NCBI GenBank assembly: GCA_034659695.1
Contig: JAYEHY010000026.1
Span: forward strand, 1 to 53,562
Length of the DNA: 53,562 bases
Direction of reading: 5' to 3'
Source of the DNA: Campylobacterota bacterium
GTDB lineage: Bacteria; Campylobacterota; Campylobacteria; Campylobacterales; Sulfurovaceae
In this document: positions 2,080-8,756 of the stretch, piece after piece
How the letters are laid out: each line of letters begins with the position of its first letter
How positions within the stretch are numbered: position 1 is the stretch's first letter
The notes under the pieces: model-generated
Databases searched by the model: none
What the model was told of the DNA's origin: nothing
The model's input: the letters and a program-made list of their open reading frames with translations, nothing else
Program-made: the position numbers and the translations under genes

Positions 2080-2510
2080 TATACACTTCCTAAAAAATCT
2101 AAACAGCTTATAAATAGTAACAATACCAGTAATCCGCCATAGAACATACGCAAAGAAATTGAAAACATTGTTTTAAGATAATCATCCACATCACTTTCAA
2201 ATCGTTTAGGGTTTAAATCAAAAAGAAATTCATCACTTGTAGGTCTATTTTTAACAACCCATCCATATAGTTTCCTATAAATTCTCTCTGTTCTTAAGTA
2301 ATATGTATCTAAAATCCAAAATGAAAATAATGGTAAAAATGCCAATAAATAATTTGTATCTGACTTACCTTTAAATATAAGTGTGATAACAATTAATGTC
2401 ACTGTCCAACCTTTAATTTTAAAAGAGTTGTCAGCCATTCTTTTTATGATATCTTGTATAACTTTAATTTCATCAATTAACAGTTTTTCATTTTTTGTTA
2501 GATCTTTCAT
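2079..2510 (-). CDS. Small multi-pass membrane protein, putative TIR-associated effector
   Basis: 143 aa with ~3 hydrophobic segments; IQDIIKRMADNSFKIKGW and FWILDTYYLRTERIYRKLY motifs; start and stop overlap both TIR genes. Confidence 0.75.
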   Translation of the reverse strand: MKDLTKNEKLLIDEIKVIQDIIKRMADNSFKIKGWTVTLIVITLIFKGKSDTNYLLAFLPLFSFWILDTYYLRTERIYRKLYGWVVKNRPTSDEFLFDLNPKRFESDVDDYLKTMFSISLRMFYGGLLVLLLFISCLDFLGSV

Positions 2511-3088
2511 CTACTAGTACCTCCTAACCAATCTTGTATATAAACCTTCGCTCCATACGTTTCACACCTGATAAAAAGATCATCTACTGAATAGCCTTTT
2601 TTATCTTTCAATACCCAACAGTAAAGACCAAGATATTCCTGACCTTTAAAATACTCACTAAAACTATTATTATTTGTTGATATAGGTAGTACAGCTACTC
2701 TTTTATTTTTTATTCCATCAAAATAGCCAAGTTCCCAAGGCATCCATTTTGAGCTTGGAGAGTTTTCCGATGTAGCAAAAAATAAACATTTAGATTGCTG
2801 CATTCGTTTTTGTAAAACCTTTGCTGTTTCTTTTGTAACCTCGTCTCTACTTAATAATTTATCTGTAATCCAGTCTACATAAACAGTATATCCCATCCGT
2901 TCCAATTCTTTTTTTAGAGCAGGGATAATCTCTTTATCCGCATAACTATGTGATAAAAAAATATCAAAATTATCATAATCACTTACATAAATATTACTTG
3001 CATTTTTTGATTTATATTTTGCGATATAATCATAACTCTCTGTCAAAGGCGTATAACTCTTCAAATTTTCATAATTAAATAATGCCAT
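2507..3088 (-). CDS. TIR-domain protein (TIR_2, ThsB-like)
   Basis: DIFLSHSYAD, GYTVYVDW, SKWMPWELGYFDG with the catalytic Glu, VAVLPI. Confidence 0.9.
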   Translation of the reverse strand: MALFNYENLKSYTPLTESYDYIAKYKSKNASNIYVSDYDNFDIFLSHSYADKEIIPALKKELERMGYTVYVDWITDKLLSRDEVTKETAKVLQKRMQQSKCLFFATSENSPSSKWMPWELGYFDGIKNKRVAVLPISTNNNSFSEYFKGQEYLGLYCWVLKDKKGYSVDDLFIRCETYGAKVYIQDWLGGTSR

Positions 3089-4341
3089 TACTCTTCTCCC
3101 TTAGTTTTATATGTTCTCACTTCCCCACTCAACAACCTCTGCATCAACCCACGCTTCTGCTCTTTAAGTGCTTCAAGTTCATTTTTGAGCAAGTCTATCT
3201 CTTTGTCTGCAAGAGTTAGGACTTCTGCTATATTTTGTTGTTCTCGTATAGATGGAAGCCTTATTGGTAAACCTTTTACAATTTGAGCATTGAGATTACC
3301 TTGTGTTCCAGTTTCAACAAATCTATATATATACTTTTTAAACTCCAAAAGACAATAATACAAATATTCTAAATCAACTCGTTCAAGATTCGGAATTATA
3401 TTTATCATTGCTTGACTCGTAGATACTTCTACTTTATTTATTGTCACAAATCCAACAGAAGCATACATTGAATAAATTAAAGTGTTTTTAGGAACTATCC
3501 ATGCTGAAGAACTATCTAATGCATCTTCAGTAATATGGACTTTAGTATCCAATAAATATTTACCACTATTTGTCATATCATTAACTTTAACAAACGGTAT
3601 CTCTCCCGTATAAAAGTCTTTATTTGTAGCTTTAGGTGTTCCTCCAGATTGCATTTTCAATGCAATCTCCCCTAACTTCACCTCTTCCCACTCCCCATCA
3701 AATCCATCAAACCGAACTTCCCCACTCAAAAGCTTCTGCATCAACCCTTTTTTAAGCTCTTCTTTGGCCTCTATGAGTGCTTCTTGTTTACTGATGGCAT
3801 CATCCCAAGTGGTGAGAATTTGGGCTATTTTTTGTTGTTCTTTTAGGGGTAGAAGAGGGATTTTTAACTCTGCAAACTCTTTTTGTCCCAAAGTTTTGTT
3901 TCGACCTGCTCCACCAGGCGAAGCTAAACCAAGTAAATGTTTTCCTCTTTTTGATTTAAAAAAGTACAAGATGTAATCAATATCAGATTTATTATCTTTG
4001 GGCTGATACATAGGAAAACGATGAGAGGCGATCATACCTTTCTCATTTATAGTTGTTTTTGCCACAGCCTGTTCCCACGCAAATACAATATTTACAATGA
4101 AACAATCTTCTTCAATCCAAAATACAGACTTATTACCTAATACTTCACCTGTTACTGATTCCTTATGGAATATTCCCTTGGCATGAGAACGAATACCTAT
4201 TTGTTGATACTCTACTTCTTTTTCAACATCAACTTTTTTTCTAATACGTTGCAAAAATGTATCAATACGAGGAGTATCCCAATCCTCAGGAATCACCCCA
4301 ACCTTAGTCTGCTTATAGCCTTTTCTAATAACTTCAGCCAT
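3088..4341 (-). CDS. hsdS: Type I RM specificity subunit
   Basis: Two TRDs with repeated conserved helices (PLKEQQKIAQIL..KKGLMQKLLSGEVR and PSIREQQNIAEVL..KRGLMQRLLSGEVR); GVIPEDW start. Confidence 0.95.
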   Translation of the reverse strand: MAEVIRKGYKQTKVGVIPEDWDTPRIDTFLQRIRKKVDVEKEVEYQQIGIRSHAKGIFHKESVTGEVLGNKSVFWIEEDCFIVNIVFAWEQAVAKTTINEKGMIASHRFPMYQPKDNKSDIDYILYFFKSKRGKHLLGLASPGGAGRNKTLGQKEFAELKIPLLPLKEQQKIAQILTTWDDAISKQEALIEAKEELKKGLMQKLLSGEVRFDGFDGEWEEVKLGEIALKMQSGGTPKATNKDFYTGEIPFVKVNDMTNSGKYLLDTKVHITEDALDSSSAWIVPKNTLIYSMYASVGFVTINKVEVSTSQAMINIIPNLERVDLEYLYYCLLEFKKYIYRFVETGTQGNLNAQIVKGLPIRLPSIREQQNIAEVLTLADKEIDLLKNELEALKEQKRGLMQRLLSGEVRTYKTKGEE

Positions 4342-5320
4342 TTTTATTCTCTATGGATTTTATAGCATCTTCAAAATCACTCTCAACTCTGCTTTTTTCA
4401 TTGATTGCTATTGCTTTATATTTATCATACTCTTCATTTGCTTTTTTAAGTGCTTGTTTATGAGAGATGACACCTCTGTTATTCAAGATCTCAAAATCAG
4501 AAAGAGTCAAAAAGTCATCTAGCTTTTTTATCCAGTCTTGCATCTTCATAGTTTTTCGTTTTTTTGCTTGAAGCTCTGCAAATTCTAGATATGATGTCAC
4601 TATTCGGTTGAGGGTATCTAGCTCATCATCAATAAGATAGTTTTTAGCTATACTGGCCTCTTTTTTTGTTGGTTTATTCCCACTAAAGTTTGTCATACCC
4701 ACATTTTCTTTTGTACTATCCACTCTTTTATGCACTATCTCCGCAGCTGTATGCCCGTGCGTTGCAAAGTGCATTTTGTTTTGTATGGTTTTAAAAAAGT
4801 CTTGGGATCTTTCATCATTTGCATCATAATCAACACTCGTGGCATAGATGTCTAAAACTTTTTTCCAAAATACTTTTTCACTACTTCGTATATCTCTTAT
4901 ACGTTCTAACAACTCATCAAAATAGCTATTTTTAGCCTCTTTGAGTCTCTCATCATCCATTACAAAACCTTTGATGACATACTCTTTGAGCCTTGCCGTT
5001 GCCCACTGTCTAAACTTTGTTGCTATGTTTGATTTTACTCTATACCCAACTGAGATAATCATATCAAGATTATAATGTTCAATGTCTCTTTTTACTTTTC
5101 TACTACCTTCTTGCTGAACTATTAGGAAATTCCTAATAGTTGGAGTCTCTTCCAGCTCTTTTTCTTTATAGATATTTTTTATATGCTCATTTATGGTAGC
5201 TGTTGTGACACCAAAAAGTTCTGCTAACTGTTTTTGAGATAACCAAAGAGTCTCATTTTCTAGTTTTATATCAAGATTGGTAGTACCATCTTCACTTTGG
5301 TAAATTATCATCTCACTCAT
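4334..5320 (-). CDS. rhuM: RhuM family protein
   Basis: ETLWLSQKQLAELF, YNLDMIISVGYRVKS, FRQWAT, IRDIRSSEK motifs; family often found in type I RM operons. Confidence 0.9.
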   Translation of the reverse strand: MSEMIIYQSEDGTTNLDIKLENETLWLSQKQLAELFGVTTATINEHIKNIYKEKELEETPTIRNFLIVQQEGSRKVKRDIEHYNLDMIISVGYRVKSNIATKFRQWATARLKEYVIKGFVMDDERLKEAKNSYFDELLERIRDIRSSEKVFWKKVLDIYATSVDYDANDERSQDFFKTIQNKMHFATHGHTAAEIVHKRVDSTKENVGMTNFSGNKPTKKEASIAKNYLIDDELDTLNRIVTSYLEFAELQAKKRKTMKMQDWIKKLDDFLTLSDFEILNNRGVISHKQALKKANEEYDKYKAIAINEKSRVESDFEDAIKSIENKNG

Positions 5321-6804
5321 AGCCCAAGCTCCGAAAGATAACTCTGCATCTGTTTTTTCACCTCTACCAACTCATCTTCTATCTTAGCTATATTGGCTTT
5401 AGTAGCTTCAATATCTACAGGCTCTTCCTCTTCAAAGGTATCGACATATCGTGGGATATTGAGGTTGTAGTCATTCTCTTCCATCTCTTCAACTGTAGCC
5501 ACATGAGCGTACTTCTCTATCTCTTTTCTGCTTTTGTAAGCCTCTAATATCTTATCTATATGTACAAGGCTCAGGGAATTCTGGTTCTTGTCTTTGTCAA
5601 ACTCACGACTTGCATCTATGAAAAGTACATCAGTATTCGTTCTGCCTTTTTTAAAGATGAGTATCGTCGCCGGTATACCGGTACCGAAGAAGAGGTTTGC
5701 AGGTAAGCCTATGACAGCATCAAGTAGATTATGTTCGATGATCTGCTGTCTTATGCGTCCTTCACTTGCTCCACGGAATAATACACCATGAGGAAGCACT
5801 ACACCCATACGACCGTTTTCATTGAGTGAAGCTAACATATGCTGCACAAAAGCGTAGTCACCCTTGCTCTTTGGAGGTAACCCATACTCAAAACGCTTAT
5901 AATGGTCATCTGCCAATTCATCTGCACCCCATTTATCTAGTGAAAAAGGAGGATTTGCAACAACAATATCAAACTTCATAAGATGATCATTTTCTACATG
6001 CAGAGGGTTACGCAAGGTATCCCCCCATTCTATCTTAGCATCATTGATCTCATGAAGAAACATATTCATTTTAGTAAGGGCTTGGGTTTCACCATTTTTC
6101 TCTTGCCCATAGATGGCGAAGTTGTCATTATCCACCTCTTTGCTTGCTTTGATGAGCAAAGATCCAGAACCACAAGTAGGATCATAAATCCTATCTCCCT
6201 CTTTAGATTCTACCAATTTAGCCAACAGCGTAGAAACAGCAGACGGGGTGAAAAATTCCCCACCTTTCTTCCCTGCATCAGAAGCAAAGTGGGCTATTAG
6301 ATACTCATACGCATCCCCTATAACATCATTACCCTCTAGCATAGAAGGGCGAAGGTCAAGTCTCTCATCGGCAAAATCTTCAAGTAAGTGCTTGAGTATG
6401 GAGTTTCTCTCCTTGGTTCGTCCCAACTTCACCTCAGAGTTAAAGTCCACATTACGGAAGATACCCTCTAGCTTCTCTCTGTTATCCTCTTCTATACGCT
6501 CCAAAGCCTTGTTGATGACTTCACCCAGTTCATTAGACTCTTTATGCTTTAAGATGTACTCAAAAGTACAAGAGTCATCAAGCACAAATTTTTCACGCTT
6601 CAGGCTTCTCTCTATACGCTCTTGATTGTCCCTATACTTCTCCTGAAGATCCTCCAACTTCTCTCTATAAAAATCAGACAAATACTTTACAAAAAGCATC
6701 GTAAGCACATAGTCTTTGTACTCACTACTGTTCATCGTCCCCCTAAAAGTATCACATGCCCTCCATACGATATCGTTGATAGTCTTTTGAGTTGTCTTTT
6801 GCAT
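5317..6804 (-). CDS. hsdM: Type I RM methyltransferase (m6A)
   Basis: GEFFTP, YDPTCGSGSLL (motif I), VANPPF (motif IV), VLPHGVLFRG, YNLNIPRYV. Confidence 0.97.
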   Translation of the reverse strand: MQKTTQKTINDIVWRACDTFRGTMNSSEYKDYVLTMLFVKYLSDFYREKLEDLQEKYRDNQERIERSLKREKFVLDDSCTFEYILKHKESNELGEVINKALERIEEDNREKLEGIFRNVDFNSEVKLGRTKERNSILKHLLEDFADERLDLRPSMLEGNDVIGDAYEYLIAHFASDAGKKGGEFFTPSAVSTLLAKLVESKEGDRIYDPTCGSGSLLIKASKEVDNDNFAIYGQEKNGETQALTKMNMFLHEINDAKIEWGDTLRNPLHVENDHLMKFDIVVANPPFSLDKWGADELADDHYKRFEYGLPPKSKGDYAFVQHMLASLNENGRMGVVLPHGVLFRGASEGRIRQQIIEHNLLDAVIGLPANLFFGTGIPATILIFKKGRTNTDVLFIDASREFDKDKNQNSLSLVHIDKILEAYKSRKEIEKYAHVATVEEMEENDYNLNIPRYVDTFEEEEPVDIEATKANIAKIEDELVEVKKQMQSYLSELGL

Positions 6805-7394
6805 TATTTGTTATCCTTGTTTGATTGTATTATAGTATCTAAAACAGCTTGTCCAAACTGTTCTTTTTCTTTTTTGAGTTTTTCTAACAATTGTATTTCT
6901 TTTTCAGAAAGCTTCATCAATGCTACTACTCTCTTCTGCTCCTTAAGTGTGGGTAAAACTATCTCTAAATCTTCTAGATCTCTAGTCTTTAGAGAGAATA
7001 TAGTTGCAAGTTTCATCTTCTTTTCAAGCACTCTTTGGGCTGTAATACTATTGATATAGTAAGCCAAAAACTCGTTGTCAATCATACTACTGTTTACTCG
7101 TACAATACTCATAAAAGAAGGCACTACCATACCCTTGAAGCTCTTATCTATACAAACAGCTGTCACAGGATCTCTCAATCTTACTACAACATCCCCTTCA
7201 CGACTAATATAAGAATCGTCTATCTCTTCAGTAGAAACAAAATCATCAATATAATCAAGCATAAGTGAAGTACTGTTTGAAAAAGATTTGAGAGTAATCT
7301 GCTTATAGCCAATCTTTACATTATCAGAAAGAGCGGCTTTCTTACGTGAAAGAACAAGACCTGTTCTAATATCTGCAATCTGCTTTAGCTTCAA
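6804..7394 (-). CDS. Half-size (single-TRD) HsdS-like protein
   Basis: LKQIADIRTG, EGDVVVR, EFLAYYINS, LEIVLPTLKEQKRVV coiled-coil. Likely TTG start at 7394 after AAGGAG; ORF-track start 7433 lies inside the promoter. Confidence 0.8.
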   Translation of the reverse strand: MKLKQIADIRTGLVLSRKKAALSDNVKIGYKQITLKSFSNSTSLMLDYIDDFVSTEEIDDSYISREGDVVVRLRDPVTAVCIDKSFKGMVVPSFMSIVRVNSSMIDNEFLAYYINSITAQRVLEKKMKLATIFSLKTRDLEDLEIVLPTLKEQKRVVALMKLSEKEIQLLEKLKKEKEQFGQAVLDTIIQSNKDNK

Positions 7395-7424
7395 AACCTC
7401 TCCTTTTAACTGTTTATTATAAGA

Positions 7425-7453
7425 ATGATACAATAAATTTATACGATTGTCAA
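7425..7453 (-). promoter_or_regulatory. Sigma70 promoter of the RM/TIR operon
   Basis: TTGACA (7453-7448), 17-nt spacer, TATCAT (7430-7425). Confidence 0.7.
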
Positions 7454-7502
7454 GTTTTTTGTTTATTTTAAAAAGAAACTATATTTTATGTGCGTGTACC
7501 CT

Positions 7503-7545
7503 TTATACACATCCACTTTATCACATTTATTCACACTTATCCGTA
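7503..7545 (+). repeat. Phased DnaA-box-like nonamers
   Basis: TTATACACA 7503, TTTATCACA 7517, TTATTCACA 7527, TTATCCGTA 7537; last three on a 10-bp period. Confidence 0.45.
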
Positions 7546-7636
7546 CTCTGTCAACTAAAAAAAATTGCTTGTTTCTAGAATAGTTTTATGGCTAAATAAT
7601 AGTAATAATTTTTTGTGTGATTTTCAATAAACGGAA

Positions 7637-8160
7637 GAAGTAGCAAGTTAAAGATGCCCTGAATTGAGACCTCAATCATCTTTAACTCACATTGAGAGAA
7701 GTATATCAGAAAAATACTTCTAAATCAATGCCTTATCATTGTCAACCTCTACTTCATAAAACTACCATAAAAAACCACATAACACCCTCTGGAGGTTCGA
7801 CCTTATCTCAATCTAAGTCATTGATACAATTGAGGCTGGTAAGATGAATGTGAAAGCATTCTAGAGTTGATAGCACATATGCCGTGTTTTCAGCTTGAGT
7901 GATCAGAGTACTCTTTTGGGTCACCAGAATATAATAGCTTAACACAGATTGAAATGCATCCCATCAAAAAGCCGACTCAAGATCTCTCAAGATGTGAAAG
8001 CACTCTCTAATCAAGTCGGAACACCTGAATTAAGAGACCTATCAAGGATAAGAGCTGTATATCAGCTATCAAATAGATATACGTCTGACGATAAACAGCG
8101 TGTGACAGATTGTGTTGTTCAGTGTTTTGAGCCCTGATTTTACATTAGGGCTCAAAGCTC
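7637..8160 (+). ncRNA. Candidate large structured non-coding RNA (unassigned family)
   Basis: At least 12 nested helices found by eye, two GAAA tetraloops, and G-U pairs that work only on the + strand; no credible ORF. Confidence 0.6.
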
Positions 8161-8269
8161 TTCAAATTTGTTCGGGATTATGTATTAGGTTGGAAGATTG
8201 AAAAGTAAAAAATAGAAATTAGCTTCAAAGTACGTTGTATTGGGAATAAAATGGATGATATTAAAATGG

Positions 8270-8357
8270 TGGCCGGGAGAGGGGGATTCGAACCCCCGGA
8301 GGTATAACCCTCACCGGTTTTCAAGACCGGCACATTCGACCACTCTGACATCTCCCG
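8270..8357 (-). tRNA. tRNA-Ser(TGA)
   Basis: Acceptor CGGGAGA/TCTCCCG, anticodon arm CCGGT-CTTGAAA-ACCGG, long variable arm, GTTCGAATC, encoded CCA. Confidence 0.97.
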
Positions 8358-8416
8358 GTATTAGTAGGACGCTTTTTGAGTAAAGCTACAAAAAACTACG
8401 TTAAGCACTTAGCTAT

Positions 8417-8450
8417 CTTCAGTAGATGGCTCATACGACTAGTCGTATTT
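8417..8450. repeat. Dispersed double-hairpin palindromic element, copy A
   Basis: cttcagtagatggctcatacgactagtcgtattt is 27/34 identical to revcomp of 16469-16502; contains perfect 16-bp palindrome 8433-8448. Confidence 0.7.
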
Positions 8451-8506
8451 ATAATACTTATTGTTAAGACGAAATTCTATCTAAAAAAGATAAAACTAAG
8501 TTTATA

Positions 8507-8582: not shown

Positions 8583-8589
8583 ATAATGC

Positions 8590-8747
8590 ACCATCAAAAA
8601 ATCAAAGGTGGCTTGATTAGAGCGACTAGTAGCGAGAGCTTTCTGCTGACAAGCATTAAAATGCAGTGCATGTGAAGCACTAAATGCTGAATCGTAAGAA
8701 AACTTAGCGTTAGCGTAAATCAAGATGAACTTTGTTCATTTGATGGT
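8590..8747. repeat. Long imperfect hairpin (MITE/REP-like) in tRNA spacer
   Basis: Nested pairs ACCATCAAA/TTTGATGGT, CAAAG/CTTTG, CTTGATT/AATCAAG, TTTCT/AGAAA, AGCATT/AATGCT, AGTGC/GCACT. Confidence 0.65.
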
Positions 8748-8756
8748 CCATTTAAA

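Follow-up and report, generated by a model that had tools for sequence, protein, structure and literature searches.

A large structured RNA, likely of a new family, at the tRNA-Ser end of integrative defence islands in Sulfurovaceae

In a contig of a Sulfurovaceae bacterium (the window: all 53,562 nucleotides of JAYEHY010000026.1), we found a conserved element at 7603–8160 on the + strand that is very probably a real structured RNA, about 560 nt long, at the tRNA-side end of a defence island. A first reading of the window from its letters alone (the sequence-only reading) had proposed that a tRNA-linked defence island ends in an undescribed large + strand RNA with an elaborate fold, and homology, covariation and the lack of an Rfam match bear this out. 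The RNA is likely a new family of the ornate ROOL/GOLLD-like kind in a new setting, that of non-phage defence islands.

Conservation, fold and strand of the element

A DNA search over 249 other genomes of the family (Sulfurovaceae, which are sulfur oxidisers) returned homologues in 13; a fourteenth raw match, in G472, was a 33-nt chance hit and was excluded. Pattern scans widened the set: a 19-letter pattern matched 44 metagenome stretches, 22 of them true homologues by nhmmer, and of the 46 stretches that a 21-letter pattern picked out of 185,579 species genomes, 13 proved to be true homologues (nine labelled Sulfurovum, two Sulfurovaceae, and one each Nitratifractor and Sulfurimonas), which makes Sulfurovaceae the likely host family. 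Beyond the family, a DNA search of 401 genomes from the order gave only matches below 55 nt at E>0.001 and no real homologue. A covariance model of 7960–8120 (R1), run on 151 genomes of the order and on 40 from genus g31, gave no accepted homologue; its weak matches in G210 and G603, both within 700-aa ORFs, were dismissed. Of 261 genomes in the family to which the Sulfurimonas-labelled carrier belongs, only the carrier itself matched, apart from one 25-nt chance hit; that carrier's contig may be mis-binned. BLAST against phages gave eight short chance matches and no homologue, BLAST against plasmids gave none, and nhmmer confirmed no homologue among the 2, 45 and 3 matches of three IMG/VR scans. 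Its absence from the phage collections searched leaves the RNA with no direct link to phage biology; the narrow host range limits the significance of the family. The most divergent copy (L051/L035, G575:C185:1763-2015) comprises only the 3' part, on a contig that ends inside the RNA, away from any att end and with neither att arms nor tRNA; it adjoins a haemagglutinin-like toxin/immunity-type gene pair.

After identical copies were removed and partial ones excluded, 25 distinct full-length copies remained (alignment A4), 67–100% identical with a mean of 82%, and holding 193 invariant columns in runs of up to 13 nt. Conservation sets in sharply at about 7603 rather than at 7637, where the sequence-only reading had begun its unit of some 520 nt, so that the length becomes about 560 nt. 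The RNA is better conserved than the adjacent hsdS DNA (77–80% versus 60–67%). No ORF is conserved across the 25 copies, in keeping with the earlier claim that the region has no credible one. A small-protein gene or a decayed coding sequence with incidental structure is barely credible: the best shared frame (45–84 codons, starting at TTG 7949) stays open in 10/25 copies, that of the window included, but is absent from the remaining 15, its stop positions differ, frame-breaking indels occur throughout, and variation by codon position is 0.06/0.07/0.10.

Every helix arm named by the sequence-only reading was found in the window, if not exactly where stated then no more than a few bases off, and its 108 pairs, having been drawn without homologues, formed an independent set for a tree-aware covariation test. 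Three of these pairs reached E<0.05 and ten E<0.5, against 0 and 0–1 in slid controls. Our revised model on A4 comprises 146 pairs arranged in 30 helices and is 96.4% paired, with 50 pairs changed on both sides compared with 18.4 ± 2.8 in shuffled and 6–14 in slid controls. Because this model was chosen on the same alignment that was used to score it, the tree-aware test was added for it as well, and gave 6/146 pairs at E<0.05 and 15/146 at E<0.5 (slid controls again 0 and 0–1). Testing all positions against all, tree-aware, yielded no pair at E<0.05 (best 0.1–0.2); four of its top five were canonical pairs within helices.

The 5' hairpin P1 (7611–7636, stem 7611–7616/7631–7636) carries a loop predicted to pair twice at long range, through 7617–7621 with 7774–7778 (three of five pairs compensated) and 7622–7628 with 7948–7954 (five of seven pairs invariant). 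Domain 1 (7637–7755) is a three-way junction closed by 7637–7643/7749–7755, with two long compensated arms; in the tree-aware test 7649–7684 and 7691–7729 reach E of about 0.001. It had been drawn correctly before: in the 25 homologues its closing helix GAAGTAG/CTACTTC is 95% paired with one compensated pair, GTTAAAGATG/CATCTTTAAC 94% with five, CATTGA/TCAATG 81% with two, and AGAAGTAT/ATACTTCT 92% with four. The 3' end hairpin and the hairpins 7807–7834, 7846–7861, 7872–7888 and 7993–8002 of the sequence-only reading also hold on A4, whereas the closing helices proposed for domains 2 and 3, and four inner helices besides, are paired in just 49–70% of cells.

In hairpin P6 (7800–7840), CTCAAT/ATTGAG is 100% paired with four compensated pairs; the proposed CTTATC/GGTAAG (60%) gives way to the true register 7800–7802/7838–7840, in which the pair 7800–7840 has a tree-aware E of 0.003. 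The hairpin that follows (7846–7861), drawn as GAATGT-GAAA-GCATTC, is 100% paired in the 25 homologues, with five of its six pairs compensated and a GNRA loop in 25/25. Both loops claimed as GNRA were confirmed, each being GAAA in 24/25 copies. Domain 2, for which closure by TCTG/CAGA had been proposed (69% paired), is redrawn as a predicted four-way junction at 7864–7978 closed by 7864–7869/7973–7978. It has an invariant 13-mer at 7862–7874 and an optional sub-helix of about 25 nt (near 7921–7943) that is missing from 7/25 copies. Within it AGCAC/GTGTT is near invariant and 100% paired; of GAGTTGA/TCAGCTT the inner five pairs stand (98%) and the helix as a whole does not (74%); GTGATC/GGTCAC (57%) fell away. 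Domain 3, similarly, is not closed by AACACA/TGTGTT (49%) but is predicted to be a four-way junction at 7984–8054 closed by 7984–7986/8052–8054. It holds a near-invariant stem at 8004–8037 and the second GAAA loop (7996–7999, 24/25 copies), whose hairpin TGT-GAAA-GCA is 93% paired with three compensated pairs; CCGACT/AGTCGG (70%), ATACG/CGTGT (60%) and CTG/CAG (66%) were not upheld in the 25 homologues. Two hairpins follow at 8056–8109, where AGCTG/CAGCT, although 94% paired, is displaced by the better helix 8056–8063/8076–8083 with six of eight pairs compensated. The loop 8065–8071 is invariantly complementary to 7868–7874, a candidate kissing or intermolecular pairing that would compete with local helices. 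Other competing candidates are 7884–7888/8020–8024, 7889–7893/8025–8029, 7785–7788/7905–7908 and 7804–7808/8046–8050; several invariant segments can thus pair in alternative ways. We found no conserved self-complementary loop in the RNA. The 3' terminal hairpin (8126–8156) is 92% paired with no compensated pair, and because it has a U-tract on neither strand it is not a classical intrinsic terminator.

P6 contains an internal loop, 7812–7817/7825–7829, that by its sequence reads as an 11-nt GAAA-tetraloop receptor with a U-A outer pair. The motif occurs in 23/25 copies, as UCUAAG/UAUGA in 21 and in two as variants (CUACG with UAUG or UACG, that is, an A-to-C platform and/or a U-to-C bulge change), compared with 1/25 reverse strands and 110 of 5000 shuffles (2%). 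The available text of PMC3494683 describes the platform change as naturally occurring and that of 10.1101/2024.03.11.584472 includes the bulge change as a measured receptor variant; within what these portions cover, both changes are reported as tolerated.

The region is more stably folded than expected by chance (z = -4.5 on +, 0/100 shuffles; -2.8 on -). Folding energy alone chooses neither strand nor molecule: folded as DNA the z values are -4.5 on + and -3.6 on -, and in G096 they are -3.3 versus -5.1, which does not discriminate the strand. The claim that non-canonical pairs are G-U on + (A-C on -) was borne out, with 110 G-U versus 43 A-C cells in 136 Watson-Crick-dominated pairs. Directly upstream, at 7570–7602 on +, homologues carry TTGACA-16/17-(A/C)ATAAT or TAAACT, a promoter motif at fixed offset in 13 of the 24 copies that have upstream sequence, across several unrelated spacers. 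The window's own version is degenerate (best TTTCTA-17-AATAAT, 8/12 consensus bases), and the promoter listing of the window has no + promoter at 7570–7602. Transcription of the element from a sigma70-type promoter of its own, to give an RNA of about 560 nt, is likely, with both ends placed by conservation and promoter position. One wetland metatranscriptome held two contigs (173 and 151 nt, depth 3.4–4) inside the RNA, at about 7844–8107, and none on the flanks, a hint from a single study of low depth with unstranded contigs, in which DNA carry-over is possible and the uncovered parts of the RNA are uninformative. Six changes at paired positions were listed for these contigs: two form one compensated pair and four look broken, three of the latter close to the end of a contig, where changes in the pairing partner could be missing from the list. 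A search for antisense targets in the element's own genome gave none above chance.

The sequence-only reading had offered a single-strand origin or oriT as an alternative. A structure acting as ssDNA (such an origin, an oriT or an ssDNA promoter) in transfer or replication of the excised element would fit the folding as DNA and the NikA, relaxase or coupling protein of some carriers, and a stretch at 7803–7810 resembles, in some copies, what we take to be the MOB-P nick motif. These nick-like bases vary, however, covary with their partners and differ from the motif in the two relaxase-bearing islands. No oriT was located elsewhere in G034 or G096. The GAAA/11-nt receptor belongs to the tertiary motifs of RNA, the promoter at the 5' edge is double-stranded, the RNA also persists in genomes whose islands showed no relaxase (G013, G537 and the window), and its presence in an RNA library weighs weakly in the same direction. 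Comparative methods, according to the sections of PMC5737381 available, hardly tell ssDNA from RNA, which favours this alternative; all told we consider it very improbable. Supposed likenesses to 23S rRNA and RP4 oriT were dropped on pairing, variation or lack of tool support.

The island and its tRNA-Ser end

In 22/25 full-length copies the RNA is followed by arm-type repeats and then by the 3' end of an opposite-strand tRNA-Ser(TGA); the other three contigs end before this region, so that all 22 assessable copies abut the att end. In the window the arm-type repeat GGTTGGA (8188–8194) is single; in relatives it forms a direct pair, found alike at either end of the island. The att core (8270–8288) is the 3' end of the host tRNA-Ser(TGA) at 8270–8357 on the - strand, the last of a Gly-Leu-Cys-Ser cluster, which converges on the RNA. 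In five relatives (G034, G096, G424, G013 and G537) the att core (17–27 bases) recurs 8–30 kb away, just ahead of a tyrosine integrase, together with the arm repeat. These relatives therefore have the duplicated tRNA 3' end, tyrosine integrase and arm repeats of a tRNA-targeting integrative element, and the RNA marks its tRNA-side end. The link to a tRNA that had been drawn by analogy with GOLLD and ROOL is real in that a tRNA adjoins, but it is the integration-site host tRNA-Ser on the opposite strand and not a tRNA array. The spacers within that cluster (Ser-Cys 8358–8506, Cys-Leu 8583–8756) contain palindromic sequence and are much longer than in most relatives; that sequence recurs 2 and 6 more times in the genome at 74–87% identity, and probably represents short intergenic repeats.

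Carriers are integrase islands of 8–22 kb with no virion genes in the ORF lists read, and some encode NikA plus a relaxase or a coupling protein. Their cargo is mostly defence: type I RM, TIR, HipA, AbiEii, Vsr, PLD, SNF2 and Schlafen. The window's cargo, all on the - strand, comprises a type I RM S gene (6804–7433), the M gene (5317–6804), a RhuM-family gene (4334–5320), a second S gene (3088–4341), a TIR gene (2507–3088), an unannotated membrane-like ORF (2079–2510), a ThsB-type TIR gene (1495–2079) and a HipA-like kinase (200–1357), the region 1–1357 also holding the start of hsdR. The two TIR genes thus lie around the membrane-like ORF within the type I RM operon, with hsdS on one side and hipA/hsdR on the other, and no ThsA-type effector was seen there. 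By overlapping ends, hsdR continues in contig C42, followed by a peptidase-like gene and then ordinary host genes. The assembly (95.5% complete) shows no integrase and no second att core; the island is a fixed relic of which only the tRNA-side end survives. Its RNA copy keeps 139/146 pairs, with slight decay in the weak promoter, an altered receptor 3' strand and the single arm repeat.

The sequence-only reading had suggested that the RNA might be a component of the RM/TIR operon. It does lie divergent from hsdS in the window, L003, L067 and L080, and one gene away in L098, yet a type I RM S gene is the immediate neighbour in no more than 4 of the 23 full-length copies that have an ORF upstream, and the second gene in a fifth. 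Elsewhere the neighbours, in either orientation, are GGACT, Vsr, DUF6088/AbiEii, a ParA pair, PLD, SNF2 helicase, Schlafen or HTH genes. With at least ten unrelated neighbours, in both orientations, varying freely among copies, the RNA is not part of that operon; the integrase is the only protein family common to all islands. Gene context has already largely refuted an RNA component or antitoxin of the operon, which we regard as hardly tenable.

A far-end att copy is present in 14 family genomes, seven of which carry the RNA. Among the other seven, G029 and G446 have a different arm type, G092 has lost the RNA, G087 keeps a 60-nt remnant, and three have no assembled tRNA-Ser. The loss in G092 is a deletion of about 740 nt that includes 200 nt upstream of the RNA, and leaves no clean empty site. 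Twelve element ends at tRNA/tmRNA genes (three at the same tRNA-Ser; G021 of the same genus) have arm repeats and no homologue or comparable fold. The tree of the RNA ignores arm type (nine changes, shuffled mean 10.7, 18/200 shuffles as low). Together with the sister elements that lack or have deleted it, this argues that the RNA is not needed for integration, and it is dispensable for the integrated element. A recombinase guide of the bridge-RNA kind was rejected on similar grounds: absence from 14 related element ends, loss in two, and a tree incongruent with arm type.

The fixed position does keep alive a cis role in excision or integrase expression. On this view transcription would continue into the att site. 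While the element is integrated, the RNA could oppose read-through from the tRNA operon; in the excised state, directly upstream of the integrase across attP, it could be a leader, attenuator or antiterminator. Position and direction against the arm repeats are fixed in 22/22 assessable copies, the RNA is co-directional with the far-end integrase in all five relatives named above, and the end hairpin's missing U-tract also fits such a device. By eye, integrases have sequence resembling their own -10/-35 beside the arm repeats, which speaks instead for a stand-alone RNA. Against a cis device stand the 12 related tRNA/tmRNA elements and G029/G446, which have arm repeats without the RNA, the tree's disregard of arm type, and the retention of the RNA in the window genome though integrase and far att are gone; moreover, 560 nt with a tetraloop receptor go far beyond the needs of known attenuators. 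We think it unlikely, but a serious contender.

The integrase family occurs in 43/301 genomes of the order. Its loci L174–L203 show a widespread Campylobacterales family with many tRNA/tmRNA targets, each with its own 7–9 bp arm repeat pair, among them TGTGGGG, GGTTGGA, GGTGGTA and GGGTAGCA. At tRNA-Ser we saw tandem accretion (L068, 2640–2900; G034:C1 near 2543900; G013:C18 near 133000; G092:C26), in which the ends of elements that differ in their arm repeats meet across the att core; the integrase of G106 and the second one of L068 are frameshifted. Two tRNA-Pro island ends (L271:9150-10150 in G142, L277:15981-16981 in G312) have about 1 kb without a long ORF, not strongly folded, and a common short conserved stretch just before the arm repeats. 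Pfam-less proteins of 464 and 560 aa after HTH genes (L039:13627-15021, L073:749-2428) have a similar N-terminal HN-x motif and, judged by eye, are probably Mob/Pre-type relaxases. Another Pfam-less protein of about 310–330 aa occurs in three RNA-associated islands (L090:1273-2256, L172:9566-10486, L046 near 19600), once directly after the integrase. Finally, L039:1-1799 (G424) has nucleotidyltransferase- and membrane effector-like genes, CBASS-like by eye, about 9 kb outside the far att.

Relation to known RNAs and possible role

Over 7400–8270 Rfam returned only chance matches at E≤10, the window's only matches at gathering being its five tRNAs, and over 12 homologous loci nothing across the element appeared at E≤5. 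The earlier impression that there is no rnpB, tmRNA, SRP or intron signature was right: Rfam gave no such match and ARAGORN no tmRNA, and neither tool matched the element to tmRNA, RNase P, SRP or tRNA. Our literature search, which covered freely accessible papers other than the GC-IGR motif surveys, met no description of the RNA or the island; the motif may have been described outside Rfam.

We liken the RNA to ROOL and GOLLD, yet it is a member of neither. ROOL, as far as the available parts of PMC5737381 and PMC12286853 go, averages 581 nt, assembles into cages of RNA only and is not known to have a protein partner. The RNA described here is close to it in size (about 560 nt) and shares multiway junctions and pseudoknots, having three predicted junctions and two to three pseudoknot candidates, as a ROOL-type RNA should. 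It also shares a tetraloop/receptor contact (predicted for our RNA; P2-L5 in ROOL, in the accessible portion of PMC12191101), a place on a mobile element beside a tRNA, the lack of a fixed protein neighbour, and dispensability. It differs in that no ROOL match was found at gathering, at E≤10 over 7400–8270 or at E≤5 over the 12 loci, and in having three modelled junctions versus six. ROOL sits in prophages and phages, often in tRNA islands, while this RNA sits on a non-phage integrative element in Campylobacterota, has a narrow range and faces a host tRNA that is merely the integration site. The RNA-only cage of ROOL is homo-oligomeric. GOLLD is likewise a large ornate orphan on mobile DNA near tRNA genes. 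Many GOLLD RNAs exceed 800 nt; this one is shorter, lies outside prophages and tRNA arrays, and has no match to the GOLLD covariance model or conserved 3' domain in our Rfam searches. ARRPOF, from Fusobacterium plasmid pKH9, is also a pseudoknotted RNA on a non-phage mobile element, but it is 255 nt long and lies in a plasmid replication region, while ours is dispensable and has no Rfam or plasmid match. The islands themselves resemble tRNA-targeting tyrosine-integrase islands and IMEs: the tRNA 3' end is duplicated as att, arm repeats are present, the integrase sits at one end, some members encode a relaxase, the cargo includes defence genes and elements accrete in tandem. We know of no such family with a fixed large structured RNA at its att end.

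The receptor and the invariant runs keep alive the reading that a ribozyme of a new kind, say a nuclease or what is left of a self-splicing element, has settled at the island end. Group I and II introns, HYER and RNase P type B have a GAAA tetraloop with an 11-nt receptor and are of similar length; here no catalytic-core motifs were seen, and there are no exons, RT or Rfam match. Group II introns are marked by the domain V AGC/CGC triad and AC bulge, a domain VI branch site and a GUGYG 5' end at an exon junction, group I introns by a P3-P7 core with a G-binding site that interrupts a gene. Reading GTGTG/GTGCG and the end hairpin in this way failed, as GTGTG at 7615 is internal and pairs with 7776–7780 and the triad-like bases vary; a group I reading of the receptor hairpin was dropped for want of an Rfam match, a host gene or, on inspection of A4, a P7 pairing. 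In favour of a ribozyme are the 193 invariant columns with runs of up to 13 nt and several pseudoknot candidates. The available part of PMC3494683, a survey of 78 loop-helix contacts, takes all four of its classical GAAA/11-nt contacts from RNase P or group I ribozymes, and ORF-less group IIC introns of comparable size (about 640 nt) cut DNA, as the accessible text on HYER1 (PMC12990946) has it. Against it, no Rfam intron, RNase P or ribozyme matched at E≤10 in the window or E≤5 in the 12 loci; by eye we saw neither an invariant AGC/CGC triad carrying an AC bulge (in 7846–7861 the AGC varies) nor a branch hairpin, a group I P7 pairing or an interrupted gene, and no RT in the islands read; and the G092 deletion, extending 200 nt upstream, leaves no clean empty site. 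We judge a ribozyme decidedly doubtful.

For an RNA that is conserved and compensated, constant in its place on the element and independent of its neighbours and of integrase type, we tentatively favour the following explanation, with a little less than even confidence in the mechanism as a whole. A free-standing RNA of about 560 nt would be made from its own promoter at the island's tRNA-side end. Docking of GAAA into the 11-nt receptor, with long-range pseudoknots, would collapse it into a compact fold with packing of the ribozyme type, as our model suggests. It would then act in trans, in the fashion of ROOL and GOLLD, as a protein-independent particle that may help island and host in conflict with phages, for instance as a decoy or scaffold. 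Oligomerisation and a defence role are the least supported of these steps, and draw on analogy and the island's cargo. The fixed position at the att end (22/22) is not what plain cargo would predict, and counts against this explanation, as do the dispensability of the RNA, its absence from the phage collections searched and the lack of a conserved self-complementary loop. That a new ribozyme-grade RNA, whether catalyst or RNA-only particle, is itself an anti-phage or anti-rival weapon on Sulfurovum-type defence islands seems to us distinctly unlikely.

Bacteria have, to our knowledge, few large RNAs of intricate fold, and the orphans ROOL, GOLLD, OLE and ARRPOF are still without a function. 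This family brings ribozyme-type tertiary motifs to small non-phage islands with defined ends, replaceable cargo and natural variants with and without the RNA, which should make the role of an ornate RNA easier to test here than in uncultured phages, and it offers a new target for cryo-EM. If the weapon reading were true, an RNA of this sort would be without precedent on non-phage defence islands, and in a setting that already has natural deletion alleles.
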